Sequence record: LR694611
DNA from: Escherichia phage rV5_ev158
Direction: 5' to 3' (one strand)
DNA length: 64,000 nt
Below, one piece after another: positions 16,514 through 32,404 of this stretch (the first letter of the stretch is position 1; each line of letters begins with the position of its first letter). The position numbers and the translations under genes were made by a program. The notes under the pieces were generated by a model that was given only the letters and a program-made list of their open reading frames with translations, was not told the origin of the DNA and did not search any database.

Positions 16514-17563
16514 ATGAATTTAACACCTCGCAGCACCATGGTACACGGCATGAAAGAGAAACAGAACGGTTTCGAACCTATGAGTAATAAAATGTTTGGT
16601 ATGCCGGGCGGTATCATGGAAACATACAGCTACCCAACACCTGTTGTTGACCACGTTCTTTATATCGACGATTTGGAAGACCTGCAGGATCATATGTCTC
16701 GCCTGCAGACGATCCGTATGGCTCAGCCTGAAGAAAGCATTCGAGTGATCATTAACAGCCCTGGTGGTTGCGTGCACATTGCGATGGCTTATCTGCAGGC
16801 ATTCCGCGAGTCTCAGGCAAGCGTTGTTGCACATGCGGAAGGGATGTGCTGCTCTGCGGGAACAATCTTATGGCTGGGTTGCAAAGAACGTACTGTGGCT
16901 CCGGACACAGAGTTTATGTTCCACTACTATCAAGGTGGCACTTATGGTAACGGTGTGAACATGAATACTCAGGTCAGCTACTGGAAAAAACGTTTTGAAC
17001 GCCTGATCGAAAAATACTACGGTGGGGTGCTGACAGAAGATGAGATCGCATCCATCACAGCTGGTGGCGAAGTGTGGTTGGACGGAGAAGAGCTGGCAGC
17101 ACGCACTGGAGCTATTATTCTGGATGAAGGCAACATACAACGCATCCAGAACGGACAAAAACCGAAAAAGCTTCTGGCAAAAGGTGATGAAGAAGGCGTG
17201 TTAGGTGAAGCAGGTCTTCCGGAGATTCACCAGTGCACATCTTTAGATGAGTTAGTTCATGCTGTTGAATCTGCAAAAGCGGGTGGTTCGAAAGGTGATG
17301 TTCACACTGTGTTCCTGAATCTGCAGATGGAAAGTGGCGAGACCGTCAGAATTGCCCTGAGTGAGATTACTTCAGAAGATCTGCAGCGATTCTCTGTCGT
17401 TGAACTTCAAGACATTCTGTCCCAATTGAAGACAACCCTGAACGGCGGTGAAGAGGTTAAGGTAAAAGATAAGACTCGCAAGCGTCTGGTGGACAATATT
17501 ATTAAAACAGCAAAAGAGCTCAATGAAAAAATCCTGGGTGCAGGAATTGTCGAAGAAGCTTAA
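16514..17563 (+). CDS. ClpP-family serine peptidase-like protein with C-terminal extension
   Basis: INSPGG and GMCCSAG (Ser) blocks, then His and Asp in ClpP order; about 150 aa extra C-terminal region. Confidence 0.6.
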   Translation: MNLTPRSTMVHGMKEKQNGFEPMSNKMFGMPGGIMETYSYPTPVVDHVLYIDDLEDLQDHMSRLQTIRMAQPEESIRVIINSPGGCVHIAMAYLQAFRESQASVVAHAEGMCCSAGTILWLGCKERTVAPDTEFMFHYYQGGTYGNGVNMNTQVSYWKKRFERLIEKYYGGVLTEDEIASITAGGEVWLDGEELAARTGAIILDEGNIQRIQNGQKPKKLLAKGDEEGVLGEAGLPEIHQCTSLDELVHAVESAKAGGSKGDVHTVFLNLQMESGETVRIALSEITSEDLQRFSVVELQDILSQLKTTLNGGEEVKVKDKTRKRLVDNIIKTAKELNEKILGAGIVEEA

Positions 17564-17598: not shown

Positions 17599-17614
17599 TG
17601 ATCTGGAGATTTGC

Positions 17615-18148
17615 ATGACTTGTGCTAGAAAACCTGATGAACAACGTAACGCCTACGATGAGTATGTGACACCGGAGTGGTGTGCAGAAGGGCTGTATGA
17701 CCTTATTCCGTTCCCAGAAGACTGGACCTACTTAGAGCCTTGCAGGAATAGTGCCTCAGGTGTGTTCTACTCACGTATGCCGTTAGGATCTGCATGGGGA
17801 GAAATCCAAGAAGGTGTTGACTATCTGAATACAGAATACAACCATGTTGACTGTATTATCACCAACCCACCATACAGCCTGGCTCGTGAGTTTGTAGACA
17901 AGGCGTTGAAAGATGCTGACGTAGTTATTATGCTTTTGCGTCTTAATTTTCTGGAAAGCAAAGCCAGATTTGAATGGTGGCTTGATAATGCACCTACTAC
18001 TGTGATCACAATATCTAAGCGTCCATCATTTCAATCAAATGGCAGAACTGACGGGCAAGCATATGCATATTTTGTGTGGGATAAGAAAAACCGTTTAGAC
18101 TTGCCGCCGTTTATGTGGTTGGCACCCCCAGAGGTAGACCTGAAATGA
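17615..18148 (+). CDS. small DNA N6-adenine methyltransferase-like protein
   Basis: 177 aa with IITNPPY catalytic motif; size and motif fit small phage Dam-like methyltransferases. Confidence 0.5.
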   Translation: MTCARKPDEQRNAYDEYVTPEWCAEGLYDLIPFPEDWTYLEPCRNSASGVFYSRMPLGSAWGEIQEGVDYLNTEYNHVDCIITNPPYSLAREFVDKALKDADVVIMLLRLNFLESKARFEWWLDNAPTTVITISKRPSFQSNGRTDGQAYAYFVWDKKNRLDLPPFMWLAPPEVDLK

Positions 18149-18429
18149 AAATGAGTGCTAAGGACAAATTACACCAGTTAGCGCTAAAACGTCCTGTAAC
18201 GCTTCCTGACGAGCTTAACTCCATTTATGATGCGATTGTAGGGGAGATACAAAATAAAGCGTTAGCAGGCTTTCTGGGGTGCGGATTTTCGATAAATCTA
18301 CCCTCGCATCTCTCAGATTACTTCCCGCACATTGTTGGAGATTTAAGGGCAGGAGGTCTGCAGGTAGATGTTGTTGGCATCTCCCCAGAGAAAAATAATA
18401 CGGTTGCCTACTTGACAGTAACCTGGTAG
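18145..18429 (+). CDS. hypothetical protein
   Basis: ATG 18145 with GAGGTAG upstream. Confidence 0.45.
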   Translation: MKMSAKDKLHQLALKRPVTLPDELNSIYDAIVGEIQNKALAGFLGCGFSINLPSHLSDYFPHIVGDLRAGGLQVDVVGISPEKNNTVAYLTVTW

Positions 18430-18465
18430 TTGTGTATTGTTGTTTTCAACAAGAGGGGGTCATTT

Positions 18466-18705
18466 ATGTACAAGTCATTTTCAATCTACTCAAGACAGGC
18501 GAAACACTACACAGAGATCCTGATCACTCAGAAAAAATCTGTGGAAGGTGAGTGGGAATATCACCATAAAATGTTGCGTCCAGACTGGGTTTTTGATAGA
18601 CTTATTGCTATGATCCCTCTCGGAGAAGTATACCCTCTGACAGCCCATCGCGATGCTTGGGATTTAATTGATTACATAGATTCATTTAAGGAGCCTAGAT
18701 TATGA
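18466..18705 (+). CDS. hypothetical protein
   Basis: ATG 18466 with AGGGGGT 5 nt upstream. Confidence 0.45.
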   Translation: MYKSFSIYSRQAKHYTEILITQKKSVEGEWEYHHKMLRPDWVFDRLIAMIPLGEVYPLTAHRDAWDLIDYIDSFKEPRL

Positions 18706-19100
18706 AGATTGAGATTACTAAAGAAGGTAAGAAAGTGTCCGGCAACTATGCAACAGTAATTCGGGATTTAATGTTTGAAGCCACCAAGATCGGTACATCT
18801 AAAGTTGGTCAAACTGTTAGTGTGAAAAGTAATATCGCCACAGGAGAGAAGGTATTCATTGTGGTCAAAGGGCAGGATCCCGTGGAAGGAACAGTGGGCC
18901 GAGGTGGCTACCTATGCATTTCTGAAGAGCCGCGTATGTTAGTGGCTGACGCTACTATGGGTGGGAAACGTGTGTGCGAGGCGGATGAGGTAATGATTAT
19001 CCAACCTGTTGATCCAGATGACCCAGCAACTTGGGTGGTAGGAAATGAAATCTTCTCTTTAGAAGAGTTATCCTTCCCAGCACCGCGCTCTGTTCAGTAA
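18702..19100 (+). CDS. hypothetical protein
   Basis: 132 aa ORF. Confidence 0.45.
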   Translation: MKIEITKEGKKVSGNYATVIRDLMFEATKIGTSKVGQTVSVKSNIATGEKVFIVVKGQDPVEGTVGRGGYLCISEEPRMLVADATMGGKRVCEADEVMIIQPVDPDDPATWVVGNEIFSLEELSFPAPRSVQ

Positions 19101-19137
19101 TAATTTATCTTACCGGGGACGGTAGGTAGGAGGTAGC

Positions 19138-19371
19138 ATGAAAGTTAAATTTCTTACAGATTTAGGGTACCCTTCCTTGGTTGACTGTGTTGGTAAAATT
19201 GTGGAAGCAAAACGGCTATCTGCAAACGAGAATGTTGTCCTGGTTAAAGGGAAGGATTTACTAGCTGCAGGTGCAGAGTCTGGCAGGATCTCTCCTGATT
19301 ATATGTATTACCTATCTTTAAGTAATCTGCCAGAGCGAGGCGGTAAAGGCCTTGAAGTTGTGGAGGAGTGA
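19138..19371 (+). CDS. small acidic protein, MKVK / KGxDLxAAGA paralogue family
   Basis: MKVKFL...VGKIVEA...LVKGKDLLAAGA...GLEVVEE; paralogous to 22796 and 23010 ORFs. Confidence 0.5.
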   Translation: MKVKFLTDLGYPSLVDCVGKIVEAKRLSANENVVLVKGKDLLAAGAESGRISPDYMYYLSLSNLPERGGKGLEVVEE

Positions 19372-19376
19372 CAGGT

Positions 19377-19901
19377 ATGCTTCTGATTAACTGGGAAGAC
19401 CTCTATGGGGACAAAGACCCTGTTGCGTTTGTTGATCGTAGGTGGAGATACACTGAAGAACAACTGGCGGCAAAAAATTTAACTGCAAAACGCAGAAAGA
19501 TCATCCAGTGCAAGTACAAATACGCACAGTTTGCTGCAAAAGTGTCTCCACAAATCGAGAGCTTTGTGCTTAAATTGTATGACGAGTACCTCAAATTCAA
19601 ATTGGATTTTGTGCAGGTGTACCGTGCACAGGTACGACCAGATACCAACATATGTAGATGGAAGGTTGTTTGTGAAGGTAAAGATTTGCCGCTCAGCTTG
19701 ACAATTGAGTGGCGTTATGGGTATCATGAGTGTGGTCTGTATGATATTTGGGATGTCATTGTAGATCCTGCTAAGCATCTGAACACAGAGGAGCTGGAAT
19801 ATATCAATAAGGTTATTCTCGATATGTTTTTCAGCTACACACATGAAAACTCTGAGAAAGAACGGGATAATTTTCTTGACACCCTCAGCGACCATTTGTA
19901 G
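19377..19901 (+). CDS. hypothetical protein
   Basis: ATG 19377 with GGAGGAG upstream. Confidence 0.45.
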   Translation: MLLINWEDLYGDKDPVAFVDRRWRYTEEQLAAKNLTAKRRKIIQCKYKYAQFAAKVSPQIESFVLKLYDEYLKFKLDFVQVYRAQVRPDTNICRWKVVCEGKDLPLSLTIEWRYGYHECGLYDIWDVIVDPAKHLNTEELEYINKVILDMFFSYTHENSEKERDNFLDTLSDHL

Positions 19902-19931
19902 TATACAATTTAACCTACAAAGGGAGGACCA

Positions 19932-20159
19932 ATGAGTATAAATGTTGTGCTAATAGGTTACCTGGTAATGTCCGTTATAACAGCGGTATTCTTGACAGGT
20001 GTATGCATCGTGTCCAGACGAAGGGTGAAGTTTGATGATTTTATCACCATCATCACTGCTGCACCTTTTTGGCCTGTTGTTATCTTCATCGTAATAATGT
20101 GCCTAGTTGATTACTACAAGAATATCAGGAAGGAGAGTAGGGATGGAGACCGCACCTAA
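19932..20159 (+). CDS. small membrane protein (two predicted TM segments)
   Basis: Hydrophobic stretches VVLIGYLVMSVITAVFLTGVCIV and IITAAPFWPVVIFIVIMCLV. Confidence 0.45.
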   Translation: MSINVVLIGYLVMSVITAVFLTGVCIVSRRRVKFDDFITIITAAPFWPVVIFIVIMCLVDYYKNIRKESRDGDRT

Positions 20160-20295
20160 AACTATCTATACTGTTCTTAAAGATATTGCGTTCTACGCAG
20201 ATCTTAGCCAGGCACCTTTATGGGAAAAGAGCATGTATTTAAAATGGTGCGTTAATTTAGGGAGACCTTCCAGTGTTTCAAGCCATGTTTATTGA
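20143..20295 (+). CDS. hypothetical protein
   Basis: ATG 20143 with AAGGAGAG upstream. Confidence 0.35.
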   Translation: METAPKTIYTVLKDIAFYADLSQAPLWEKSMYLKWCVNLGRPSSVSSHVY

Positions 20296-20378
20296 GATGC
20301 TATCTGGGATATTGTTACTGGTAGCCATCTTAGGTGGTGCAGTTCTGATGTATAACTATCTTGAAAAAGGAGACAGCA

Positions 20379-20564
20379 ATGGTAAAAAATAAATCTTTAG
20401 AGCAGGCTGAAAACCTTCTCCACGAGCTGGTAAAGGAGTGGAAAGTTGAATACTCAGATTTTAATGCACGAGAGGGTGAAGATTATTGGCCTACGGAGCG
20501 CTCAGAGGGAGAATGGTATCAAGATTTTATAGAGTGGTTATATCAGACGTGCGATGAGGGGTGA
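20379..20564 (+). CDS. hypothetical protein
   Basis: ATG 20379 with AAGGAG 6 nt upstream. Confidence 0.4.
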   Translation: MVKNKSLEQAENLLHELVKEWKVEYSDFNAREGEDYWPTERSEGEWYQDFIEWLYQTCDEG

Positions 20565-21031
20565 CGATGTTTGTTAAATATGTAAAAACGTGCCTCAACA
20601 GTCTTGGCAGAGAGCATTGGTACACCTTGCTTGAAAAAGGGGAAATTTTAACAAAATCTGGAAAGATAACTTTGATACCTCTTGATAGTAAAGGTAAAGA
20701 CCCGTCACGACTTGTTATAGATGATTACGTTACAGGTGTGACGTTCGAGGTCTCTGTGGAGAGGTTAATACGCAGAGCTGGCGGCCCTTATGACCGAAGA
20801 GAGTATGTTTTCGATTCCGTTACAGAGATGGGGGAGCATCCGTCTTTAATGTTCAGGATGGTAATCAGAGATATGAGGTCATCTATAGATAGGATCGTAA
20901 AGGACATTAAGGAACCTTTTAGAGTAAAAGTTAAGAAGTTTTTCGATTCTAAGATTAACATACTCGCCGTTGCACTAGGTGTAGTTCAACTTCTGTTAAT
21001 TTTGCACTATTTTGAACTACTATTTAAGTAG
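20561..21031 (+). CDS. hypothetical protein with C-terminal TM segment
   Basis: 156 aa; C-terminal ILAVALGVVQLLLILHYF. Confidence 0.45.
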   Translation: MTMFVKYVKTCLNSLGREHWYTLLEKGEILTKSGKITLIPLDSKGKDPSRLVIDDYVTGVTFEVSVERLIRRAGGPYDRREYVFDSVTEMGEHPSLMFRMVIRDMRSSIDRIVKDIKEPFRVKVKKFFDSKINILAVALGVVQLLLILHYFELLFK

Positions 21032-21093
21032 TAGTTGAGATATGGCACAAAGGATGTGCCATAGTGAAATAAACTAAGAAAGAGGTAGAGAGA

Positions 21094-21441
21094 ATGCCAA
21101 AGATTAAAACGTTATTACTGTGGGTGGCTGTTTTAGCTTTTATAGGGTACTGGACTTGGGAAACTGAATTAAAAGATATCGGATATACCAGTCTTGAGAG
21201 CAAGGCGTGCATTGGCATAACCGATGCGTTCAGGCAAAATGCTATGGATCACGAATGTGTTGATGCAGATATAGATGAGAAACTGTCTAAGGACAAAGAT
21301 TTTTACCATGGGCATGCTTTACTTGATAGTGGTGACACTGTAGAGTTCTGGTCGTGGTTTCGTGAAGATGGAACAATAAAAACAGCAGTAAAGATCTCTA
21401 ACAAAGAGTTAATGCTGTTGCAGCAAAAGGAGGCTCAATGA
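21094..21441 (+). CDS. hypothetical membrane-anchored or secreted protein
   Basis: N-terminal hydrophobic LLLWVAVLAFIGYW. Confidence 0.45.
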   Translation: MPKIKTLLLWVAVLAFIGYWTWETELKDIGYTSLESKACIGITDAFRQNAMDHECVDADIDEKLSKDKDFYHGHALLDSGDTVEFWSWFREDGTIKTAVKISNKELMLLQQKEAQ

Positions 21442-21725
21442 TCTGGATATCCTATGCTGATGGCACCATGCTGTATACTGCAGGTACCAGATATGAAGTT
21501 CAGGAGAACGATAAAAAATTTATCGTAAAAACATTTGACAAGGACGACAACCTTTTGCTAGAATTGACTTACAAGGTTGGAGAGGTATCCAATATCCAAT
21601 TGGATTGTGGTTATAAAGATAATCCACTCAAAAAACCTGGAATAGGCAAGGCTTCAGAAGAACGTTTGTCTCGTATTGCAGAAAGCGTTTCTACACAAAA
21701 ATCTAAGAAGGGGACTAGAAAATGA
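21438..21725 (+). CDS. hypothetical protein
   Basis: 95 aa ORF, 4 nt overlap. Confidence 0.45.
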   Translation: MIWISYADGTMLYTAGTRYEVQENDKKFIVKTFDKDDNLLLELTYKVGEVSNIQLDCGYKDNPLKKPGIGKASEERLSRIAESVSTQKSKKGTRK

Positions 21726-21916
21726 AAAACTTACGTTTTAACACTTATTACTACAACACATTGAATGATTTGTACTATATTGTTCGAAGTAAAAGTCCTG
21801 AAACAGTCCTATTCTGCCGTGAACCTTTCAAAGGGGAGGAAGTAGAGTCTGAGATGAATGTTAGCCAAATCACCTCTTTGTTGCTCTCAGGCGCAATGGA
21901 AGAAGCAATATTCTAA
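21722..21916 (+). CDS. hypothetical protein
   Basis: 64 aa ORF. Confidence 0.4.
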   Translation: MKNLRFNTYYYNTLNDLYYIVRSKSPETVLFCREPFKGEEVESEMNVSQITSLLLSGAMEEAIF

Positions 21917-21934
21917 ACCAGGCGGGAGGGTTTT

Positions 21935-22120
21935 ATGAAGCACTATTGCCTGTCTGGTAGAATGGGTGCAGATTGTGATTGGGTTTTCTTAAAACTTGTC
22001 AGCATTCGAGAGTTCATCCCAGAGGAAGAGCAAGAAAGCGAGCTGATGTCATGGATCAACCATTACGGTAACACTTTTCGGCATGTTAAGGTAGAAGAGT
22101 TGCCAAGCGAGGCTGATTGA
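21935..22120 (+). CDS. hypothetical protein
   Basis: 61 aa ORF. Confidence 0.4.
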   Translation: MKHYCLSGRMGADCDWVFLKLVSIREFIPEEEQESELMSWINHYGNTFRHVKVEELPSEAD

Positions 22121-22215
22121 CTATGATTGCATCAATATTAACGTTTATGGGTGGCGTGGCATTCGGATTCATTGTTTGCCTGTTTATAGTGATTATGTCT
22201 ATGCGAGGCTGAATT

Positions 22216-22512
22216 ATGAAACTTTTTGAGTGGTTTAAAAAGTTTAAATATAAAGCTGTAGCCATCGTGCCGTGGTCCATTCAGTGGGTTGATGAAGGTG
22301 GTCTACCGATACCTGGTGACAAAGATACTGGGTACTGGATTATGATGGAGAACGGGTTTGGAAAGCGAAAGTATACGTGCACAAACTCTACTCGATCTGC
22401 ACTTAATAGAGTTCCTGGTTACAAACTTATGGTTGTGTGGAAAATGTCAGGCGTGCCTCCAGCCAATGCTCAATTTCTTACTGACAATCCTACCACGGTA
22501 GAGGAAGATTGA
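22216..22512 (+). CDS. hypothetical protein
   Basis: 98 aa ORF. Confidence 0.45.
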   Translation: MKLFEWFKKFKYKAVAIVPWSIQWVDEGGLPIPGDKDTGYWIMMENGFGKRKYTCTNSTRSALNRVPGYKLMVVWKMSGVPPANAQFLTDNPTTVEED

Positions 22513-22514
22513 TA

Positions 22515-22796
22515 ATGAAAAAGATTAACAGTAGTGAAGTCGAGTTTAAACTTGTCGGAAAAGGCACTTACTGGGAAGTTCGTCAAAAGGTATATTTGTT
22601 CGGTCTTATTCCTTACTGGTCTAAATTCTACTGGGGAGCTAACGAGTGGGGAAGATACGCCACCAAATCAATGGCACTTATTGGTATAGCAGAGTACATT
22701 GCAGCCAGAGATAGGGTTGAAGACACTTATTACTATACTGCGGACGATATTCGTAACAGTGTTTACGTCCCACAACCACCTGATGGAGACCGTTGA
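22515..22796 (+). CDS. hypothetical protein
   Basis: ATG 22515; 93 aa. Confidence 0.45.
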   Translation: MKKINSSEVEFKLVGKGTYWEVRQKVYLFGLIPYWSKFYWGANEWGRYATKSMALIGIAEYIAARDRVEDTYYYTADDIRNSVYVPQPPDGDR

Positions 22797-23020
22797 TGAA
22801 AGTTAAAGTTTTAGATTCAAGCTTCTATATTGGTCAGGAGCCCTTAGTGGGGAAAGTGTTTACTGCTGTCCCTAACGAAGATTACCCCGACCTTTTAAAA
22901 ATAAAAGGGGCAGATCTTATTGCCGCTGGTGCATCTCAGGAATGCTTTGACAGTCAGTGGACCTACAACTTTGCCCTAGGTGAGGATGTAGAGATAGTGG
23001 AGGACAATCATGAAGGTTAA
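22796..23020 (+). CDS. small acidic protein, MKVK / KGxDLxAAGA paralogue family
   Basis: MKVKVLDSSFYIGQEPLVGKVF...IKGADLIAAGA...EIVED. Confidence 0.5.
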   Translation: MKVKVLDSSFYIGQEPLVGKVFTAVPNEDYPDLLKIKGADLIAAGASQECFDSQWTYNFALGEDVEIVEDNHEG

Positions 23021-23264
23021 AATTCTTGATTCTAACGTCTACTTGGGACAATCCTTCCTGAAGGGAAAGGTCGTTCCTGCGGTATACTTTGAAGGGTTGC
23101 CGTGGGATGATCCTGTTCGGCAACATCACAGTTATGTAGGCCACAACGTAGTGTTTATCTTAGGAGCAGACCTGATCACCGCTGGTGCACCTGAATATTA
23201 TTTCGGGGAAGAGTCCTATTATGCCTTTGGGGTAGGGTCAGATGCAGATATTGTAGAGCTGTGA
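23010..23264 (+). CDS. small acidic protein, MKVK / KGxDLxAAGA paralogue family
   Basis: MKVKILDSNVYLGQSFLKGKVV...ILGADLITAGA...DIVEL. Confidence 0.5.
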   Translation: MKVKILDSNVYLGQSFLKGKVVPAVYFEGLPWDDPVRQHHSYVGHNVVFILGADLITAGAPEYYFGEESYYAFGVGSDADIVEL

Positions 23265-23276
23265 TGGGCAACCGTT

Positions 23277-23675
23277 GTGAAAAATAAACTGTTCAAAGTT
23301 ACAATGAAAATTCGCGGAGCTTGGAGCGTAAAGCAAGGGCGTATTCCAGAATTTGAGAAAGACTTCTACGTAGTCTCCACCTCGGAGGAGGCTGCATGCT
23401 GGCAAGCTGGCTATGCCTATGCAAGAACCTGGTACGAAGGATACCAGACTGGGGGCTATGACGGAGAAATTATCAGCAAGGGTGTAGAAGAAATTAATGT
23501 GTTGACAAGTGAAAAAGTTTTTGTTATAGTGCATCCAGATTCCAGAGTGAAGCATTACTGGAATGCCAGAACAAAAACTTGGACACCGTTTGCAGATTCT
23601 GCTACACCACTTTTAAACCAGAAAGCTCTTGACTCTGTCCCGAGCTATGGGGTTGTTGAAGAAAAGCTAAACTGA
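23277..23675 (+). CDS. hypothetical protein (paralogue of 25482-25877)
   Basis: Shares VIVHPDSRVKHYWNARTKTWTP with VMRHPHSNIAYYWDVLNNEWTP in the other ORF. Confidence 0.5.
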   Translation: MKNKLFKVTMKIRGAWSVKQGRIPEFEKDFYVVSTSEEAACWQAGYAYARTWYEGYQTGGYDGEIISKGVEEINVLTSEKVFVIVHPDSRVKHYWNARTKTWTPFADSATPLLNQKALDSVPSYGVVEEKLN

Positions 23676-23692
23676 AACAGTGGGGTACTAAC

Positions 23693-23983
23693 ATGATGGA
23701 TTTAGTTCTGGACACTGATAACACCGGAGCGTTTAAAAAGGGTGGTGTAACAAGCGTTGACCAATCCTTCCCTGCCAAGATTGACTCAAAATGGACCTAC
23801 AAGTTTGATGGAGAGATCTTCGCAAATGATGAGAAGGTTGTAGATGCTGCAGCCATTTTGAACGCTCTAGGGTACGACCCTGTGAATTCTTTGATCAAGG
23901 ATCCTGTTGAGTTTGCAGAGTATGTTCGAAAAATGGCAGATCTTGCTGTGGATATTTTAAAAACTATCGACAACAATCTGTAA
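23693..23983 (+). CDS. hypothetical protein
   Basis: 96 aa ORF. Confidence 0.45.
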   Translation: MMDLVLDTDNTGAFKKGGVTSVDQSFPAKIDSKWTYKFDGEIFANDEKVVDAAAILNALGYDPVNSLIKDPVEFAEYVRKMADLAVDILKTIDNNL

Positions 23984-23989
23984 AAACTG

Positions 23990-24018
23990 TTGACACAACG
24001 CTTCAGATTTAGTATCAT
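23990..24018 (+). promoter_or_regulatory. putative sigma70-like promoter upstream of hpf homologue
   Basis: TTGACA 23990-23995 with TATCAT-like -10 about 17 bp downstream; hairpin GAGGGTTTGGTTCCCTC in the leader. Confidence 0.4.
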
Positions 24019-24065
24019 TGTTTTCAAAGAGGGTTTGGTTCCCTCTTCTTTAAAAGGAACACGTT

Positions 24066-24383
24066 ATGCAAATTGAAATCACTGGCAACGTAGAAATCAC
24101 TGAAGGTATGGTGTCTTTCATTTCCAACAAAATGTCTAAACTGGAGCGTTTGCACCCCTCTGCCAACTATGCACGTGTGAGTGTAAAAGTTGAAAATGAT
24201 CACCAGGAAGTTATGGCGTTCATTTTTGACAATTCTGGAAAAGAAGTTATTGCCAAGGCTAAAGGTAGTGATGCTTACGAGGCAACTGACCGTATGGTAG
24301 ATGTTGCAGCACGTCAGCTGGCTAAATGCGGTGGAAAGAAAGGTAAGGGGAAAGGCAAAGTAAAGATTGACTTTGGAGAATGA
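24066..24383 (+). CDS. hpf: ribosome hibernation promoting factor / RaiA (YfiA) family homologue
   Basis: MQIEITGNVEITEGM... resembles recalled E. coli HPF MQLNITGNNVEITEAL...; conserved VKVE block and C-terminal ARQLAK; Lys/Gly-rich tail. Confidence 0.75.
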   Translation: MQIEITGNVEITEGMVSFISNKMSKLERLHPSANYARVSVKVENDHQEVMAFIFDNSGKEVIAKAKGSDAYEATDRMVDVAARQLAKCGGKKGKGKGKVKIDFGE

Positions 24384-24520
24384 GGTGCTACAACGGGTGT
24401 GATTAAGAAATTAGTCCCAAATGTAGAGATTGCATGCTTTGAAATTATGTTTGCAATCGCAGTTGTAGTTAATGTGTTAGGTTACGGCTATTAATATCAA
24501 ATAATTGAGGAGACCTCTAA

Positions 24521-24790
24521 ATGAAAATTAAATTATTCAAAACTGAGCTGGCAGACAAAAACTGTGGACTGGTTGAAGGCATGATTGTTGAAGCACAACC
24601 AGTGGACTATATGAAGGTGGTTCGTGATGCCCTGGGTGAAGGTTTTGATCTGATGGAGCCAGCTCTGCGAGAAGATGTTATCGAGATGGCTAAAAAGCAC
24701 ACACCTGAAGGTTTGGTGGTGTTTGTTGCACCGGGTAACGGAGAAGAATTGATTGTAACTCCTGATGTGTATGAGATTGTAGAGGAATAA
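24521..24790 (+). CDS. small acidic protein (MKIK start, EIVEE end)
   Basis: 89 aa; compositionally similar to the MKVK family. Confidence 0.45.
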   Translation: MKIKLFKTELADKNCGLVEGMIVEAQPVDYMKVVRDALGEGFDLMEPALREDVIEMAKKHTPEGLVVFVAPGNGEELIVTPDVYEIVEE

Positions 24791-24881
24791 TCCTGCTTGG
24801 ATTAGCATACTTCCTCGATAAGGAAGATTTGTAATTATTTGTGGGAAAGGAATCCCAATCTCTTACCAGAGGTGATACTAT

Positions 24882-25145
24882 ATGATTGTTTATTTTAAAA
24901 CTTCAGGTGGATACCCTGATTCTCAAAGCTTGATCGGAAAAACGTGCACAGCATACTCACCTCTTGATGAGGAGGTAAGCGATATTCTACGAAATATGTA
25001 TCGGATTGACCCCCAAGAAGCCTTTGATCAAAACCTTGTATTTGTCAAGGGCTCAGATATGAAGTCTTTGGGAGCATTCCCTGAAGCAGATGATGATGCC
25101 GTTTATTCGTTCATGACTCCTTTTGAAGCTATGGTTGTTGGGTGA
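24882..25145 (+). CDS. small acidic protein
   Basis: 87 aa. Confidence 0.45.
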   Translation: MIVYFKTSGGYPDSQSLIGKTCTAYSPLDEEVSDILRNMYRIDPQEAFDQNLVFVKGSDMKSLGAFPEADDDAVYSFMTPFEAMVVG

Positions 25146-25149
25146 TAAT

Positions 25150-25482
25150 ATGAAAGTACGCTTTATTGGTGAAACAATTCCTGTGCATCTCCGGTCTCCT
25201 GAGGATTCTGCAGATCTTGCATCTCAAAAGGCGAGAGGTTATGATAAGAAAGTAACCTCAACCGATGTAGTGCTTGAGGCTACCAGTCTACCTGACCCTG
25301 CTGCATTCTTTAATCATTATGGGTACTATTTCAGCAATCTGATGAATATCGGTGAGCTTGTGTTTATTAGTGGTGGAGAGATTGTTAGCAAGCTTGGCGG
25401 CGATCCAGATGTCTTTCATGAAACCTGTCCTTTTGCATTTGTGGTAGGTTCAGATGTGGAAGTTATTGAGGAGGTGCGGTAA
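25150..25482 (+). CDS. small acidic protein (MKVR start, EVIEE end)
   Basis: In-frame ATG 25150 just after upstream stop; listed start 25123 overlaps. Confidence 0.45.
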   Translation: MKVRFIGETIPVHLRSPEDSADLASQKARGYDKKVTSTDVVLEATSLPDPAAFFNHYGYYFSNLMNIGELVFISGGEIVSKLGGDPDVFHETCPFAFVVGSDVEVIEEVR

Positions 25483-25877
25483 TGGTAAGCCTATACCGTG
25501 TTGAGTATAGCTCAGATACTGTATACAACGTAAGAAGCAAAGATCGCAGCGACAGAGTGCAAGAAATGTATGTTCTTGCCGACAGTCCGTTATCTGCAGC
25601 GTTCAAGGCAGGGGCTCTTGCATCTCGTTGGAAATTTGAAGGGGGATCTTTCTATGAAGAAACCCTTGAAGATTCTGTTGTTATTTCTTCTGTAGAGGTT
25701 TCAGACGACTACGAAGGGAAAAAGTTCGTAATGCGGCACCCACACAGCAACATTGCGTACTACTGGGATGTTCTGAACAACGAGTGGACCCCAGATCTTC
25801 AGAAGGCTACTGTGCTAACACCGTTTTTGGCAGATAAGTTCCCACCAGAAGGTAATTTATCCGCACTGTTTCAGTAA
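25482..25877 (+). CDS. hypothetical protein (paralogue of 23277-23675)
   Basis: Shared HP...YYW...WTP block. Confidence 0.5.
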   Translation: MVSLYRVEYSSDTVYNVRSKDRSDRVQEMYVLADSPLSAAFKAGALASRWKFEGGSFYEETLEDSVVISSVEVSDDYEGKKFVMRHPHSNIAYYWDVLNNEWTPDLQKATVLTPFLADKFPPEGNLSALFQ

Positions 25878-25953
25878 TTTTCTTGCACACAGGTGTTGAC
25901 AACGCCAACCCTGTGTGAAATAATACCTTCATCTTAACAAGACAGGAGACCGA

Positions 25954-26214
25954 TTGATGAAGATTAAATTGAAAAACCTTGAAACGGCAGAGATTCAGGA
26001 CGGTGTTGATTTCCGTTCTAAAGATGGTGACATCTTAGATGTAAATATTCCAACCTACGAGCTGATTAAAGGTTTTGGCAACGTTCCGGAAGAGGATATT
26101 ACAGAAATTCTTATGATGTTGATTCTTGACGGAACTGTGTTTGCAGGTGAAGGTGAGAACGCTATTGCAATCCCAGGCCATTTTTATGAAGTAGTTGACG
26201 AAGAGGTGCTGTAA
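25954..26214 (+). CDS. small acidic protein (MKIK start, EVVDEEVL end)
   Basis: TTGACA 25896-25901 upstream; 86 aa. Confidence 0.45.
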   Translation: MMKIKLKNLETAEIQDGVDFRSKDGDILDVNIPTYELIKGFGNVPEEDITEILMMLILDGTVFAGEGENAIAIPGHFYEVVDEEVL

Positions 26215-26565
26215 ATGAAAGTAGAAATTACCGGTTTTGATGTGAATGTGGTTCCGGAAGATATTTTAGCTAAACTTCCAGAAGGTTTTGGTAACGGCGT
26301 TGTGGTGGATGCTGTTCCTCCTACCAAAGACATTCTGCTGCAGTATGGTGTAGCAGAGGAAGATGTCGATAAAGTTCTTACAATGATGGCAATCGATCGT
26401 GTTGTCGTTGTTAAAGGTCTCGATAATTTTGAGAGTGATCCCCTGATTATTCGTGGAGATGACTACAAAATCATCGATAATGAAGGCCAAGAGTTCTATG
26501 AGCCTTGTGCAGAAGATATTCTTAACTTATTACTGGAAGCAGGCACCGAAGAGGAGGACGAATAA
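26215..26565 (+). CDS. small acidic protein
   Basis: 116 aa, strongly acidic C-terminus TEEEDE. Confidence 0.45.
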   Translation: MKVEITGFDVNVVPEDILAKLPEGFGNGVVVDAVPPTKDILLQYGVAEEDVDKVLTMMAIDRVVVVKGLDNFESDPLIIRGDDYKIIDNEGQEFYEPCAEDILNLLLEAGTEEEDE

Positions 26566-26894
26566 TGAAGATTGACCCGTTACTGAAGGCTCGTGCAGAA
26601 AAAGCGTACACCATTAAGTTGACCAACCTGGTTCCTACTTGTCATCCGGATGTAGGTTGGCCCGAAGGTTTGGTGGAGGGAACTGTAACAGCTGCATACC
26701 TTCCTAACATCAAATACCTTATGGAAATCTTGGAGCTGGATGAGGAAACTGCAGAACAGTTCCAGTTGGATATGAAACAAAGTGGGACTCTGGTTATTCA
26801 CGGGTGGTACAATACTAAAGATGCAGAAGACCCTCTGGTAACTTCTAATCTGGCATATGAAATCTTAGGACCTTTGAACCTGGAGAAAGACTAA
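26565..26894 (+). CDS. hypothetical protein
   Basis: 109 aa. Confidence 0.45.
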   Translation: MKIDPLLKARAEKAYTIKLTNLVPTCHPDVGWPEGLVEGTVTAAYLPNIKYLMEILELDEETAEQFQLDMKQSGTLVIHGWYNTKDAEDPLVTSNLAYEILGPLNLEKD

Positions 26895-27181
26895 TGAAAG
26901 ATCTGGTTAAGATTAAGATTAAAGATACCAATGGAGAACTCAGTCATTTTGGAATTAATGATGGTGACGAGCTGATCGCACACCTGCCTACCAAGGAAGT
27001 TGTAAGCAAAGCAGTTGCCGGAGAAGAAGATGCAATGCAGGCTGCAGGTGTGGATGAAAACTATGTAGCCATGTGCATGTGCCGAGATCAGGTTGTTCTG
27101 TATAAAGCGTATCGACCAAACGGAGCCACGGAGTGGCTTGTATTCCGACCCGAAGGATATGAAATCTTAGAGGCACTATGA
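26894..27181 (+). CDS. hypothetical protein
   Basis: 95 aa. Confidence 0.45.
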   Translation: MKDLVKIKIKDTNGELSHFGINDGDELIAHLPTKEVVSKAVAGEEDAMQAAGVDENYVAMCMCRDQVVLYKAYRPNGATEWLVFRPEGYEILEAL

Positions 27182-27270
27182 TAAATCTTGCCAAGGTTGC
27201 AACGGCACTGTTAATTATTTGCTGGTCAGTAACCTTAACACTGTGTCTTGTATTTCAGTAAGGTGCTTAT

Positions 27271-27534
27271 ATGAACATCCTGATGTGGGTTGTAGCAGTG
27301 GCGTTTGTTGCATGTTTTTGCTGCTGGGTTGCGGTGAGGATTTCTGTAGCTACCCTTCGGAAGTTGGGGTTCTCAGAGTGGGATATTAATATCCTTTCTT
27401 TTCGCAATGAAACAATCTCAGCCGCCCTGCTCTGTAAGAAATTCAAGTGGGAACCTTGCGAGGTCATGAACTATCTAAGAACGGGAGATATCCCTGAAAG
27501 ATTTAAAAAAGTTCTTGACGACAAGGATAAATGA
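27271..27534 (+). CDS. small membrane protein
   Basis: N-terminal TM MNILMWVVAVAFVACFCCWVAV. Confidence 0.45.
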   Translation: MNILMWVVAVAFVACFCCWVAVRISVATLRKLGFSEWDINILSFRNETISAALLCKKFKWEPCEVMNYLRTGDIPERFKKVLDDKDK

Positions 27535-27562
27535 TAGTATAGTGACTAACAAGAGGTGAGGA

Positions 27563-27703
27563 ATGACTAATTTTACTGAAGCTTTAATGATGGCCTTGTC
27601 TGTTTTAGCGCTATCGGTGTGTTTTGGGGCGTTATTCACATCTCTGGTTAAAGTTTTACATACAGTATTATTACCCAAGGAGCGCAGTAATGACGAAGAT
27701 TGA
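27563..27703 (+). CDS. small membrane peptide, 46 aa
   Basis: AAGAGGTGAGGA before ATG; hydrophobic core; below ORF-track cutoff. Confidence 0.35.
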   Translation: MTNFTEALMMALSVLALSVCFGALFTSLVKVLHTVLLPKERSNDED

Positions 27704-27941
27704 CTTAAATGCTGGAGACCATGTTGTTGTCAAATGCATCGGAGATTATCTTGGATTCACAATCGGCAATACTTACGAGGCGGTAGTGGCGAAGGTTTAC
27801 CATGATAAAGTCCTCAGTCTTGTATTTGACTGCGATGATGATGGGGATGACCGATACGTCTGTGAGGTGCTGGCACGAGACGATAGTGAAGACCAGAAAT
27901 TCCTGGTTATTGAACTGAACGGTATTTTTGTAGAACGTTAA
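27690..27941 (+). CDS. hypothetical protein
   Basis: ATG 27690 with AAGGAG upstream; listed ORF start 27624 less likely. Confidence 0.45.
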   Translation: MTKIDLNAGDHVVVKCIGDYLGFTIGNTYEAVVAKVYHDKVLSLVFDCDDDGDDRYVCEVLARDDSEDQKFLVIELNGIFVER

Positions 27942-27969
27942 TTTAAAACAACATAAGGAGACTCTTACT

Positions 27970-28275
27970 ATGGCTAAATCTAAAGTTGAACTGTTCACCT
28001 CTCTTCCTTCTGACACTGCAGAGCGTGATCGCCTTCGCAAAACAATCGAAGAACTGGTAGAACTCCAACTTCAGATTAAAGATCTGAAAGATGCCATTAA
28101 GGATATCATTCTCGTTGAGAAGCAGGATCACCTGTATTCTCCTAAATTCATCAAATCTCTGGTGGCTACCGAGTTCGATATTCGCTATGAGGCTGAAAAA
28201 CGTCGCGCTAAAATCGAAGAAGAGGTTGAGCACATGTCTGAGGCAGACATTCTGTTCAAACGCTCTGTAGAATAA
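27970..28275 (+). CDS. hypothetical coiled-coil protein
   Basis: 101 aa, charged heptad-like; followed by terminator. Confidence 0.5.
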   Translation: MAKSKVELFTSLPSDTAERDRLRKTIEELVELQLQIKDLKDAIKDIILVEKQDHLYSPKFIKSLVATEFDIRYEAEKRRAKIEEEVEHMSEADILFKRSVE

Positions 28276-28283
28276 TGACAAAG

Positions 28284-28307
28284 AGGGGGGCTTGGGCCCC
28301 TCTTTTT
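28284..28307 (+). terminator. Rho-independent terminator
   Basis: GAGGGGGGCTTGGGCCCCTC hairpin plus TTTTT. Confidence 0.65.
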
Positions 28308-28330
28308 ACTATCTATGAAGGAGATTTGAG

Positions 28331-28657
28331 ATGGGTATACCGATTACTGTAAAAGAGCTAAATGAACGTGATGCAGGTGGTCTATGGCCTGCACGAAAAA
28401 TCCGCTGCGTCTATATGAAAGAGAATCTTGAACATCTTGATCAACAGATAAAGGTCGGCGATATTTTCGAGGTCTTCTATTCCAATCGGCGCAACTGGGA
28501 AACCATTCAGCCTTCTGGTTTTGTTCTTGCCAAACTTGACACTGGAGAAGTGATTATCCCTGGGTTGGATATTGTCTTCGAAATTATCCAAGAGTGGGAT
28601 CCGGATAAGATTAGATACGAAGAATTATTCGGTAAAGGTATTATCAAACCTGTGTGA
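28331..28657 (+). CDS. hypothetical protein
   Basis: 108 aa. Confidence 0.45.
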   Translation: MGIPITVKELNERDAGGLWPARKIRCVYMKENLEHLDQQIKVGDIFEVFYSNRRNWETIQPSGFVLAKLDTGEVIIPGLDIVFEIIQEWDPDKIRYEELFGKGIIKPV

Positions 28658-28965
28658 GGTGGATTATGTCTACAAAGGCGGCTAAATACTCCTATATGCC
28701 ATCAACCTCTGCAGAGGTAGACTTTAGTTTCGATGTGTTTCCACTGTTTGAGGTGATTCTGGCATACCCAACAATACTATCTACTCCTGAATCACTTGTA
28801 CCTGTTAAGTTGCAGAACGCTATGCATTCTATGCACTACAACAACAAATGTAGGCACAGATGGTGTCAGGACGAGGAAAAAGATTTGGATAGTTTGAGGG
28901 ATTTTGACAGTCACCTTTTGACACCTTTCAGCTACTCCAACCTTGATAAGCCCTCATGGGTATAG
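28654..28965 (+). CDS. hypothetical protein
   Basis: 103 aa. Confidence 0.4.
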   Translation: MRWIMSTKAAKYSYMPSTSAEVDFSFDVFPLFEVILAYPTILSTPESLVPVKLQNAMHSMHYNNKCRHRWCQDEEKDLDSLRDFDSHLLTPFSYSNLDKPSWV

Positions 28966-28989
28966 CAAAATATCAAATTTAAGACACCT

Positions 28990-29016
28990 AGGACGCTCTG
29001 TGGCGTCCTTTTCTTT
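28990..29016 (+). terminator. Rho-independent terminator
   Basis: AGGACGCTCTGTGGCGTCCT hairpin plus TTTCTTT. Confidence 0.65.
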
Positions 29017-29177
29017 ATCTGGTGCACGATTGCATACCTTGGACAGATAATCTCGTTACAGAGCGTTTAAGAGCTTTCTACAAACAAGTCTCTCTTTCGA
29101 GCGTAGCGAGAACGCACGTCCGTTTTGACCCAAATCACCATACGCTCGGATTTTAACCAAACCCTCGCGGCGTTGCT

Positions 29178-29206
29178 GTTGACACATTACCGCTCCCGTG
29201 ATAGTA
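29178..29206 (+). promoter_or_regulatory. sigma70-like promoter TTGACA-17-TAGTAT
   Basis: -35 at 29178-29183, -10 at 29201-29206. Confidence 0.5.
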
Positions 29207-29239
29207 TCCACACACAGTTTGGAGAATATGGAATACACA

Positions 29240-29329
29240 ATGAGAACATTGTCTGAAGTTTTAGTGGTGATCCTGATGATCATTACTTCCATAGCGGCTG
29301 TTGCCGGAATACTCACGGGTGGAACATGA
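29240..29329 (+). CDS. small hydrophobic peptide, 29 aa
   Basis: Downstream of promoter; single TM-like VLVVILMIITSIAAVAGIL; stop overlaps next start (ATGA). Confidence 0.3.
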   Translation: MRTLSEVLVVILMIITSIAAVAGILTGGT

Positions 29330-29538
29330 TCAACACACATGCATCTGAAGAGACATCCGAAGGAGTGACCATATGTCCCTTGGATGAGCCAGTTAAAGAG
29401 GAAAACTTAGATTCTGAGGACTCTTCATCTTCGTCCCAGACAGATCCTGAGGCTGATGACCTGACGTGGGAGGACATCGTAGATATCTGGTTCTCTATTA
29501 TGCCTGAGCACGAAGAGTTCAGAGGTGGTAGACTATGA
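29326..29538 (+). CDS. small highly acidic, Ser-rich protein
   Basis: 70 aa; DSEDSSSSSQTDPEADD. Confidence 0.4.
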   Translation: MINTHASEETSEGVTICPLDEPVKEENLDSEDSSSSSQTDPEADDLTWEDIVDIWFSIMPEHEEFRGGRL

Positions 29539-29659
29539 AGCACCGAGCCCACACAGGTTCCTCATGCTAAAGCATGGCCTGAAGAGGCAAACGTGTATAA
29601 TTCTTGTGCATTGGAACGTATAAAACCCTGTTCACACTCTCATTCCCAGAGGAGATTTT

Positions 29660-29875
29660 ATGAAGATAGAGATATTTGGTGGAGCTGACAACACTCGTGG
29701 CCTGATTTACCTTGAATTCGATGAATCATACCTGCCAGAGGTGTTAAATATAGACTCTGTTGCTGAGGCTTTGGGAGTAAACCCTAAAGAACTCCACTCT
29801 TGTGCTGAGATCGATGGTTGGGAAGAGACCATGAACATTGATTTCAGTGAAGTAGAGGATGAACCGCTAGACTGA
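29660..29875 (+). CDS. small acidic protein (MKIE start)
   Basis: 71 aa; last plus-strand gene before the ORF-free zone. Confidence 0.45.
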   Translation: MKIEIFGGADNTRGLIYLEFDESYLPEVLNIDSVAEALGVNPKELHSCAEIDGWEETMNIDFSEVEDEPLD

Positions 29876-30004
29876 CACACAATCAGCTGCCCGGCTAAAG
29901 TGCTGGAAGCGCACCTATAACACATCTTTCAACTAAATTTCCTACCACCACAATCACTTACCTACCACACATGACTGTTTGCTTGTTTAGTGAGCAGTCA
30001 TGCC

Positions 30005-30033
30005 TTGACATTCTTGCCTATCCTGATAAAATT
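30005..30033 (+). promoter_or_regulatory. sigma70-like promoter TTGACA-16-TAAAAT reading into ORF-free DNA
   Basis: -35 at 30005-30010, -10 at 30027-30032; no ORF of 60 aa or more on either strand for about 2.2 kb downstream. Confidence 0.45.
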
Positions 30034-31382
30034 AAGTTCTTCTCTTTTCTTTTACCGAGTAATTCGGGTTTTCTGTTCTCTTCGGTTTGAAGGGGTATGG
30101 AGATACACCTGAGTGAACAGGGTGAACAACCGAACCATTGGCTATGGCATTAGCATGGCGAAGCGGACGGGTGACGAAAGAGGGGCCGGAGGACACCAGT
30201 CACTGCCATATGATATATGGGTGATAACCTGAAGAGTCTGAATAAGTGTTTAAGTACCAGTCAGAGGAAAAGGTGAATGGTAGCCGAAGGGGGATGGGGG
30301 GTTTCTTGTATCTTTAATTTGTATATTATGTATACACTTGTAAACCAATCTCATCTGAATCTGTTTACCACACAAAGCGGATAGAGACAAATATCACCTA
30401 TTAAACTTGAATTATTTATAGAAAATACCACAACACCACTTAAGTCTTTGATTTTACACACAAATCCTACAGATATTCAACCTCCATATTTAACATACTT
30501 GTAACATATTCCATACTCTACCTGTCTGATCAATTTCCCCAACTACATTCTCATATTTTCCCTGTCTGTACTACCCCTGCCCCGCCGGGAGTCCCGTCAT
30601 ATCTGGCTTTCCAGCAAATATCACACCCACAAATATCATTGCCTGAAGAGGGTTTCATCCCATAATACCTGCCTTACCTGAAGAGCGCTTCATACACCAC
30701 GTAAATTTTTTAATTGACCTCCCCCTGCCCCGCCGGAGAGGTTGGCTTTTCCCACACAGACCTGAAGAGTCAGCCAGAAATATCTGAACAGGCCCAATTC
30801 TACCACGATTTTGACCTGACCTACAGGGAGGCCCGAAGGGTCTAGCTTTCAGCTAGAGTCCTTGCAGGACCTACAGGAGCGCTGCCAGGCGGACGGAATG
30901 GGAATACTTCTCATTCTTATAACAATTCTCAAATATCGAGACAGTGAGAGAAATTAATAGGCCAGGCCGTTCACACAGTGGCACAACATTTGCAACCTAT
31001 TTTGGGTGGATGAATGAGAATACCTATCATTGTGAGAACTGTTATCATTACGGGCAATTTAACATAATACCCATTATGCGCACCACCGGCGATACATACA
31101 GGGATTGATAACATGGGTTACTGTTTACGCACATAACAATTATATTTCTTACTATTTGTGTGGGATATAGTTAGCAGCCGATAGATTAGATATTAACCTG
31201 CAGACTTCTGACCGTCCAGACGTCTAAACGCCCACACACCAAGGATTATACATACACTCCTGAATGTAAACAGGGCCGCAAAAATGCTACCATACAAGCT
31301 TGTAAATTTTTCATGCAGCACTTGACAAAGAGGAGAAAAACTTGTCTGACATAATGTGACCTAACTGACACAACATGACACT

Positions 31383-31471
31383 TTTACACACCTATTAGTT
31401 TACACACTGGATTGTTTACATTCCTGATTGTTCACATGCTAACCATTTACATGATTGACTGTTTACACACC
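31383..31471. repeat. iteron-like array, six copies of (T/A)GTT(T/C)ACA spaced 14-16 bp
   Basis: TTTTACACACC, AGTTTACACAC, TGTTTACATTC, TGTTCACATGC, CATTTACATGA, TGTTTACACACC; further TGTTTAC copies near 31121, 31265 (inverted), 31871, 31924, 31973. Confidence 0.6.
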
Positions 31472-31479
31472 GATAATCA

Positions 31480-31773
31480 GCCATGCCATTCGTTTGCATG
31501 AAAACAATTAACAAGATAACAATCGACAAGTTAATAATCTTTCGCTGGCTATGCCAGGTGACTAGGTCACCCCTTCGGGCGTTCCTATGACATAATATAA
31601 AAGCAGGGCAACTATTAGCAGATCTATAGTTGCCTTGCTTGTTATGTCATGATTAACTAAATACAAGGCAACTATGATCTGATTAATAGTTTGCAGACAA
31701 ACTATCACGGGGGTGATGGTTACTGCTTTTATATTATGTCGCGACTCCGTCGCGCCATGCCATTCGTTTGCAT
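31480..31773. repeat. 20 bp perfect direct repeats flanking a palindrome-rich 274 bp module
   Basis: GCCATGCCATTCGTTTGCAT at 31480-31499 and 31754-31773; between them a ~66 bp imperfect palindrome (31586-31652, centre AGATCT), GCAACTAT/ATAGTTGC inverted repeats and hairpin CGCGACTCCGTCGCG. Confidence 0.6.
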
Positions 31774-32380: not shown

Positions 32381-32404
32381 AAGAGCAGACAAAAAGAAAG
32401 GGGC
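32381..32404 (-). terminator. Rho-independent terminator for the minus-strand block
   Basis: AGGGGCCTAAGCCCCT hairpin; on the minus strand it is followed by a T-run (plus-strand AAAAAGAAA upstream). Confidence 0.6.

Follow-up and report, generated by a model that had tools for sequence, protein, structure and literature searches.

We analyzed a 64,000-nucleotide stretch of DNA from Escherichia phage rV5_ev158 (sequence record LR694611), referred to below as the window. Attention was directed to positions 19,138 to 29,875, for which a preliminary description had proposed an expanded family of small acidic proteins. The comparison of sequence profiles showed that ten genes of this region, labelled A to J in the order of their start positions, form two families of five members. 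Genes A, B, C, E and F constitute family 1, and genes D, G, H, I and J constitute family 2. We propose that they encode small, mostly acidic cytoplasmic proteins with a predicted SH3-like fold in both families, and that they descend from old tandem and segmental duplications within an accessory region equipped with sigma-70-type promoters. The probability of this reading can be put at about 0.55. The ten genes themselves are real and conserved, and their products are probably protein-binding accessory factors.

The candidate open reading frames (ORFs), i.e., A to J (Table 1) together with K, L and M, which start at 27690, 28331 and 29660, respectively, are all present on the plus strand and correspond to annotated coding sequences in phages rV5_ev168 and rV5. 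The 11-kb stretch that contains them is 100% identical to that of Escherichia phage rV5_ev168, and its identity to about 120 other Vequintavirus genomes ranges from 90 to 99%. The proteins encoded by the ten family genes are 74–116 amino acids (aa) long. Their counterparts in the rV5 reference are listed in Table 1.

An all-against-all BLASTP comparison was performed with the 386 ORFs of the window, each of at least 45 aa. Besides the B-C pair (Table 1), it gave E-values of 1e-5 for A-B, 0.008 for F-C, 0.011 for F-B and 0.017 for A-E. In the PHROG search, B (3e-38) and C (4e-32) matched phrog_5009, as did A and, more weakly, E (Table 1). The products of G and H cross-matched weakly; otherwise D and F to J each had a PHROG of their own. 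Sequence profiles were then built from orthologues found in phage FV3, in the metagenomic relatives L002 and L005 (both of them divergent and fully syntenic) and in the protein database. When 33 such orthologue-group profiles were compared with hhalign in 528 pairs, the within-family pairs ranked on top, save for one unrelated pair of paralogues, the genes starting at 23277 and 25482. In family 1, the E-values were 4e-21 for A-B, 2.6e-21 for B-C, 4e-8 for A-C, 1e-6 for C-E, 2e-6 for B-F and 5e-6 for both A-E and B-E. In family 2, the H-J pair scored 1e-4, and the pairs G-J, I-J, D-J and D-G scored about 1e-3 in nearly full-length alignments. The remaining informative pairs (C-F, G-H and H-I) are given in Table 1.

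The grouping was also obtained with members that had been left out of the profiles. In the leave-one-out search with hidden Markov models (HMMs), each of the ten held-out proteins ranked first among the 386 ORFs, with E-values from 2e-19 to 6e-5 (1.5e-8 to 6e-5 within family 2), and the runner-up scored at least 0.17. The held-out J aligned to the combined profile of G, H and I with an hhalign E-value of 1.4e-5. The held-out D aligned to the profile of G, H, I and J with an E-value of 7e-6 over 79 columns, compared with at least 0.0025 for the control genes. A profile made exclusively of distant homologues from outside Vequintavirus gave E-values of 1e-18 to 1e-26 for A, B and C and of 2.1e-9 for F, and it also recovered E (Table 1). 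Thus F, which lies outside phrog_5009 in the PHROG search, was nevertheless placed in family 1 by both this profile and its leave-one-out HMM.

These results bear directly on the preliminary description. It had named A, B and C as three clear paralogues, and this is borne out by BLASTP (3e-14 and 1e-5), by hhalign (about 1e-21) and by their common assignment to phrog_5009. It had also held that the case would fall if profile methods detected no similarity beyond these three; such similarity was found, as ten genes pass the profile tests. Of the "about eight more" tandem ORFs that had been proposed, seven (D to J) are true paralogues, and K, L and M belong to neither family. The latter three gave no match to the family HMMs at E ≤ 1, and against the family profiles their hhalign E-values were at least 0.017 over short stretches. 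Each of them has its own PHROG.

Table 1. Positions in the window of the family 1 and family 2 genes, the two phrog_7379 genes and two promoters (aa, amino acids; LOO, leave-one-out HMM).
Feature	Position	Strand	Details
A, family 1 (rV5 gp122 orthologue)	19138..19371	+	77 aa, isoelectric point (pI) 5.4; phrog_5009 E 8e-36; LOO rank 1, E 6e-10
B, family 1 (gp135)	22796..23020	+	74 aa; modelled with AlphaFold2
C, family 1 (gp136)	23010..23264	+	84 aa; BLASTP vs B 3e-14; LOO E 2e-19
D, family 2 (gp141)	24521..24790	+	89 aa; LOO rank 1, E 6e-5, runner-up 1.7
E, family 1 (gp142)	24882..25145	+	87 aa; distant-homologue profile E 6.6e-11; phrog_5009 E 1.2e-4
F, family 1 (gp143)	25150..25482	+	110 aa; hhalign vs C 2e-9; LOO E 1.5e-6
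G, family 2 (gp145)	25957..26214	+	85 aa, net charge -13; hhalign vs H 2.6e-7 over 82 columns; LOO E 1.5e-8
H, family 2 (gp146)	26215..26565	+	116 aa, net charge -21; hub of family 2; modelled with AlphaFold2
I, family 2 (gp147)	26565..26894	+	109 aa; hhalign vs H 4e-7; LOO E 7e-7
J, family 2 (gp148/gp149 in the rV5 reference)	26894..27181	+	95 aa; LOO E 1.2e-5
phrog_7379 gene, first copy	23277..23675	+	after the B-C pair; phrog_7379 E 5e-74
phrog_7379 gene, second copy	25482..25877	+	after the E-F pair; phrog_7379 E 2e-66
Sigma-70-type promoter (rV5 P144)	23990..24018	+	TTGACA-17-TATCAT, 11/12 matches; annotated in NC_011041
Sigma-70-type promoter (rV5 P150)	25896..25924	+	TTGACA-17-AATAAT with TG extension; annotated in rV5

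One member of each family was modelled with AlphaFold2. The model of B, based on an alignment of 33 sequences, reached a predicted local distance difference test score (pLDDT) of 92 and a predicted template modelling score (pTM) of 0.79. It contains strands at residues 2–5, 21–23, 33–37, 56–61 and 65–69, and a short helix at 38–43. The model of H, based on 42 sequences, had a pLDDT of 76 and strands at residues 2–5, 30–34, 64–67, 77–79 and 84–87. Helices separate its strands 2 and 3, and an acidic helix is predicted with low confidence at the C-terminus. Both families are therefore predicted to form five-stranded SH3-like small beta-barrels with the same strand order. Known folds of this class, to which they come closest, include SH3, the KOW domains of Spt5/NusG, PsaE, OapB and the C-terminal domain of retroviral integrase. 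The predicted barrel topology superposes on that of SH3/KOW domains; these proteins differ from the SH3/KOW sequence families in that neither the ten proteins nor the ten distant homologues scanned gave a Pfam match at E ≤ 1. According to the strand positions in the B and H models, strand 1 corresponds to the MK(V/I)K(L) start common to the proteins, and strand 5 to their (Y/V)E(I/V)(V/I)E end, which includes the E(V/I)VE form. A search of BFVD with the B model returned only uncharacterized phage proteins, none of family 2; its second-best structural match was the orthologue of E from Shigella phage CM1 (template modelling score 0.79).

The preliminary description had treated all of these proteins as one family. 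By sequence, two families were found, and the hhalign link between them has a probability of 14–34% (E-values from 4e-4 to 2e-3). This weak match mostly covers the first 27–61 columns. An HMM search with family 1 against D, G, H, I and J yielded no match. Even so, we consider it rather likely that the two families share a common ancestor, because several features coincide. In the hhalign alignments between the families, strands 1, 2, 3 and 5 are in register with their AlphaFold2-predicted counterparts, and the best non-self matches of family 1 profiles are consistently family 2 profiles. The strand 2-3 loop of H carries a helical insert, across which D, G, I and J align to H. In family 1, both E and F carry extra sequence in this loop, the same one that holds the family 2 helices; the insertion of E looks helical, and F has a further insertion following strand 1. 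The families also share their termini, and their genes are interleaved along the genome.

The order of the genes records two modes of duplication. The region reads B, C and 23277, then 23693, the gene of an HPF homologue and D, then E, F and 25482. The genes at 23277 and 25482 are paralogues (BLASTP 2e-7, hhalign 3e-12), both of phrog_7379, and each is preceded by two family 1 genes. Besides the tandem run G-H-I-J, this arrangement indicates the duplication of a segment of three genes, whose two copies are the blocks (B, C, phrog_7379) and (E, F, phrog_7379). Gene A lies 3.4 kb upstream of the remaining family 1 members. The same set of five plus five genes is present in L002 and L005, where all ten paralogues have one-to-one orthologues that are 27–78% identical to them; it follows that the duplications are old and that none of the copies has been lost. 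An orthologue of the first phrog_7379 copy (23277) was not detected in L002 or L005.

Between these lineages, family 2 diverges faster than the neighbouring genes, and the H orthologues are only 27–33% identical. In comparison with FV3, the ratio of non-synonymous to synonymous substitution rates (dN/dS) of the ten genes is 0.02–0.17, similar to that of neighbouring genes. All ten genes are thus under purifying selection, and these values show no ongoing arms race at the within-genus time scale. Several natural variants were observed as well: P0014 is a hybrid of B and C joined at the GADLI(A/T)AGA motif, P0037 is an internally deleted C, and P0089 is a chimera with the C-terminal part of I. 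They point to continuing recombination among the tandem copies. In the rV5 reference (L010 11026-11320), J is broken into gp148 and gp149 by two 1-nt insertions relative to the window and FV3, so that either J is dispensable or these insertions are sequencing errors. In L002 (11389-11685) and L005 (11092-11388), an extra 98-aa gene (Pfam PF27050, Phage_P22_Y8K6) lies just upstream of the G orthologue and has no counterpart in the window.

Outside the rV5-like phages, the two families are distributed differently. When 1.84 billion representative proteins were searched exhaustively with the HMM profile of family 1 (cut-off E ≤ 1e-3), 45 family 1 clusters were obtained, mostly of 65–85 aa. Most of these homologues begin with MKVKLL, end with EVIEE and share the motifs GGY, GKVVEA, G-x-(D/E)-L-I-x-x-G-A and Y-x-F. 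In some chains, two or three tandem copies or additional C-terminal domains are present. The 45 clusters span phrog_5009, 13367, 7345, 8603 and 15322. The distant homologues bridge phrog_5009, 13367, 7345 and 8603, which resemble family 1 in length, in the MKVKLL start, in the G-x-(D/E)-L-I-x-x-G-A motif and in the EVIEE end. In PHROGs, unlike in the grouping presented here, F and the five family 2 genes are kept in separate single-genus families. None of the PHROG families of A to J or of the family 1 homologues has a recorded function. No family 2 protein was found among the 45 clusters, and therefore they provide no direct bridge between the families. The same profile matched three giant proteins that were considered as candidate informative fusions, namely P0126, in which no domain was found, P0092 (5191 aa) and P0118. 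The last of these is a surface protein with YDG/MBG repeats, and its match was rejected as probably spurious repeat similarity.

Family 1 genes occur in lambdoid prophages of Escherichia coli, where they are flanked by the Q antiterminator and holin genes, and in mEp013-like phages. They are also found in T4-like Krischvirus phages. Phage RB49 (ORF071c-076c; L012 2684-4325) carries four adjacent family 1-like ORFs between gene 38 and dam, within a run of genes that are likewise small and hypothetical. As in the rV5-like window, this is a tandem expansion in the same sort of accessory region, and it is independent. The RB49 region differs from the window in having divergent copies (E-values from 6e-10 to 2e-4) with a less acidic C-terminus, and no family 2 genes. 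For family 2, a tblastn search with H matched only Vequintavirus among isolated phages. The profile searches of the protein database gave Vequintavirus-sized contigs for all five members. Family 2 is also present in the divergent metagenomic relatives. Nearly all matches in word-indexed searches of a large protein database were Vequintavirus-like. A synteny check of Raoultella phage Ro1, from a more distant Vequintavirinae genus, revealed no comparable array and no family match.

All candidate ORFs lie within a plus-strand run of small, densely packed genes. C starts 11 nt before the end of B, and both the start of I and the start of J overlap the preceding stop codon by 1 nt. Promoter P150 is located directly upstream of the G-H-I-J run. 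Promoter P144 precedes the HPF gene, with D, E and F farther downstream. The placement of the genes in an early region, as proposed in the preliminary description, agrees with these sites, which are consistent with early transcription. Because strong sigma-70-type sites coincide with the annotated P144 and P150, it is reasonable to infer that the genes would be transcribed early by the host polymerase.

The run begins after the genes of a ClpP-like protease and an adenine methyltransferase, and ends at an ORF-poor strand-switch region at about 30–32.4 kb. The ClpP-like protease (16514-17563, plus strand, 349 aa), which we take to be about 150 residues longer than bacterial ClpP, has in relatives an orthologue (Pfam CLP_protease) that adjoins a PhoH-like gene at the region's head. 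Within the small-protein cluster, directly downstream of a strong sigma-70-type promoter, we found a homologue of the ribosome hibernation factor HPF/RaiA (24066-24383, plus strand; Pfam Ribosomal_S30AE, E 1e-12). About 2.5 kb at 29876-32400 are without annotated genes, and the coding strand and the GC skew switch there. Neither a tRNA nor an Rfam family was detected in this interval. At 31598-31789 it contains direct and inverted repeats that resemble iterons (AAGCAGGGCAACTAT / ATAGTTGCC...), and it may therefore function as an origin of replication or in regulation. In addition, 18 mostly unannotated GenBank records of the MG0656xx series (e.g., MG065635.1 and MG065654.1) named "Campylobacter phage" are 96–98% identical to the rV5-like region; their host assignment may be wrong.

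As to the function, we tentatively suggest, at somewhat less than even odds, that the ten proteins are non-enzymatic binding modules that dock early onto host or phage macromolecules and serve as host-modulating or counter-defence accessory factors. This suggestion is based on four considerations. Proteins of this size are too small for enzymes, and no enzyme family matched them; barrels of the SH3-like type are well-known interaction modules; the genes are situated in an accessory small-gene region with sigma-70-type promoters, to which the RB49 region is comparable; and every paralogue has been kept under selection. Each paralogue would probably retain a role of its own, and each module would dock independently onto one host or phage macromolecule early in infection. 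The products of G, H, I and J would be made together from translationally coupled genes.

A number of observations weigh against this picture of early-acting SH3-like binding proteins. The structural models cover one member per family, the confidence of the H model is moderate, and the profile link between the families is not significant alone. The ten proteins have no match in Pfam (E ≤ 1) or PADLOC, and in NCBIfam only sub-threshold chance matches; the searches of PDB sequences with both family profiles and the Pfam scan of ten distant homologues returned nothing, and the structural neighbours in BFVD are all uncharacterized. A search of the literature, by full text and by title and abstract, found nothing on these genes. 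The early timing rests on promoter consensus. Moreover, the family 1 copy of the lambdoid prophages lies in the late region, downstream of Q and adjoining the lysis genes, and so family 1 is not strictly an early-gene family. Finally, strong purifying selection is ill-suited to a simple early arms-race effector. The preliminary description had also raised host takeover, anti-defence activity and DNA mimicry, and these gained no direct support, as shown by the absence of Pfam, NCBIfam, PADLOC and PDB-sequence matches.

Alternatively, the products of G to J, and perhaps also those of the B-C and E-F pairs, could be subunits of one hetero-oligomer, packed in the manner of SH3-like or Sm-like rings or stacks. 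The G-H-I-J genes abut or overlap, have their Shine-Dalgarno sites embedded upstream and share a single promoter. Homologues with two or three fused family 1 copies in a single polypeptide exist (P0101, P0102 and P0124), and the paralogues are all retained together in distant relatives. However, family 1 is single-copy in the lambdoid prophages, and tight gene packing is general in the region. We regard an assembly of this kind as unlikely, though as a serious alternative.

The acidity of the proteins could also suggest DNA mimicry, in which acidic surfaces would sequester host defence proteins that bind DNA (e.g., RecBCD or type I restriction enzymes). The proteins are small and acidic and are encoded behind sigma-70-type promoters. 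H (net charge -21 per 116 aa) and G (-13 per 85 aa) presumably reach the charge density of known DNA mimics. The acidic composition that had been emphasized earlier is confirmed for most of the proteins, but it is the norm of the region, where about 26 of the 37 genes encode proteins with a pI below 5.5. The net charge of A is just -1, that of B, C, E and F is -6 to -9, and that of the distant family 1 homologues is about -5, which makes mimicry a poor fit to this mildly acidic family. The conserved family 1 positions are mainly Gly, Tyr and Met, with D40 as the sole highly conserved acidic position. The predicted SH3-like barrel is, to our knowledge, not the fold of characterized DNA mimics, and it is unlike Ocr, ArdA and Arn. 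There is also no PADLOC, Pfam or PDB-sequence relation to such proteins. DNA mimicry may still apply to the most acidic members, H and G, but nothing specifically supports it, and we consider it quite improbable. About equally improbable, in our opinion, is that the proteins are RNA-, ribosome- or transcription-machinery-binding barrels of the KOW, Sm or OapB type, which would reprogram translation or transcription together with the neighbouring phage HPF.

The resemblance beyond A, B and C could also be an artefact of translation signals, with lysine at codon 2 favoured by efficient initiation and GAG-rich 3′ ends produced by ribosome-binding sites. Within the window, the N-terminal pattern occurs in 9 of the 386 ORFs and the C-terminal pattern in 8, mainly in family members. 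The start and end signatures reported earlier are thus rare elsewhere in the window, but they are not diagnostic, since non-members share the start. An MK start is found in 17 of the 37 genes of the region, and similar starts are present in HPF (MQIEIT) and in ORFs 18702 and 29660 (MKIEI), which are not members. ORF 36602-36952 on the minus strand carries the N-terminal pattern and was rejected as a basic, unrelated protein. In A, B, F, G, H and I, the final codons contain the GGAGG/GAGG Shine-Dalgarno sequence that serves the following gene, and this sequence is translated there as Glu/Asp (e.g., at 19362-19366, 22999-23003, 25468-25474 and 26551-26557). It is similarly embedded in the 3′ ends of several non-family neighbours across 17600-26900. 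The trailing Glu/Asp of the "VEE" ending is thus partly the translated GAGG ribosome-binding site of the next gene. For K, L and M, translation signals are the best account of the resemblance. For the ten family genes, this explanation is very improbable and is ruled out by the leave-one-out HMM tests, as membership was obtained from full-length profile matches and not from the termini, D and J retain the EIVEE/EILE ending with the next gene about 90 nt away, and both termini persist in distant family 1 homologues of other phages.

The practical value of the grouping lies in annotation. These ten genes are labelled simply as hypothetical in about 120 sequenced rV5-like phages, among which are candidates for therapy and the BASEL Vequintavirinae phages. 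Ten ORFans collapse into two families with a predicted fold, one of which recurs in tandem in an unrelated phage group, and the grouping provides defined blocks (B-C, E-F and G-J) and a few baits for interaction screens. The result is a tidy-up of a block of hypothetical genes, with no surprising new kind of system. It also carries a caution for scans made from sequence alone: shared termini can reflect initiation preferences and ribosome-binding sites embedded in upstream genes, and acidity by itself is no marker of DNA mimics in a phage early region.

The present proteins can be compared with T7 Ocr, ArdA, T4 Arn and T7 Gp5.9, which are likewise small and acidic phage proteins and are expressed early, as the present ones would be. 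They differ from these in having no sequence relation to them, in the moderate charge of family 1 and in the predicted fold. A broader, and more doubtful, possibility is that families 1 and 2 represent a single fast-diverging SH3-like "binder scaffold". It would be amplified in tandem by large lytic phages (rV5-like and RB49-like) and kept as a single copy in lambdoid prophages, with its copies tuned through the strand 2-3 loop and the segment after strand 3 to neutralize different host proteins. If true, such a scaffold would amount to a modular library of inhibitors built on one fold, with a logic comparable to that of anti-CRISPR or Ocr-type effectors.

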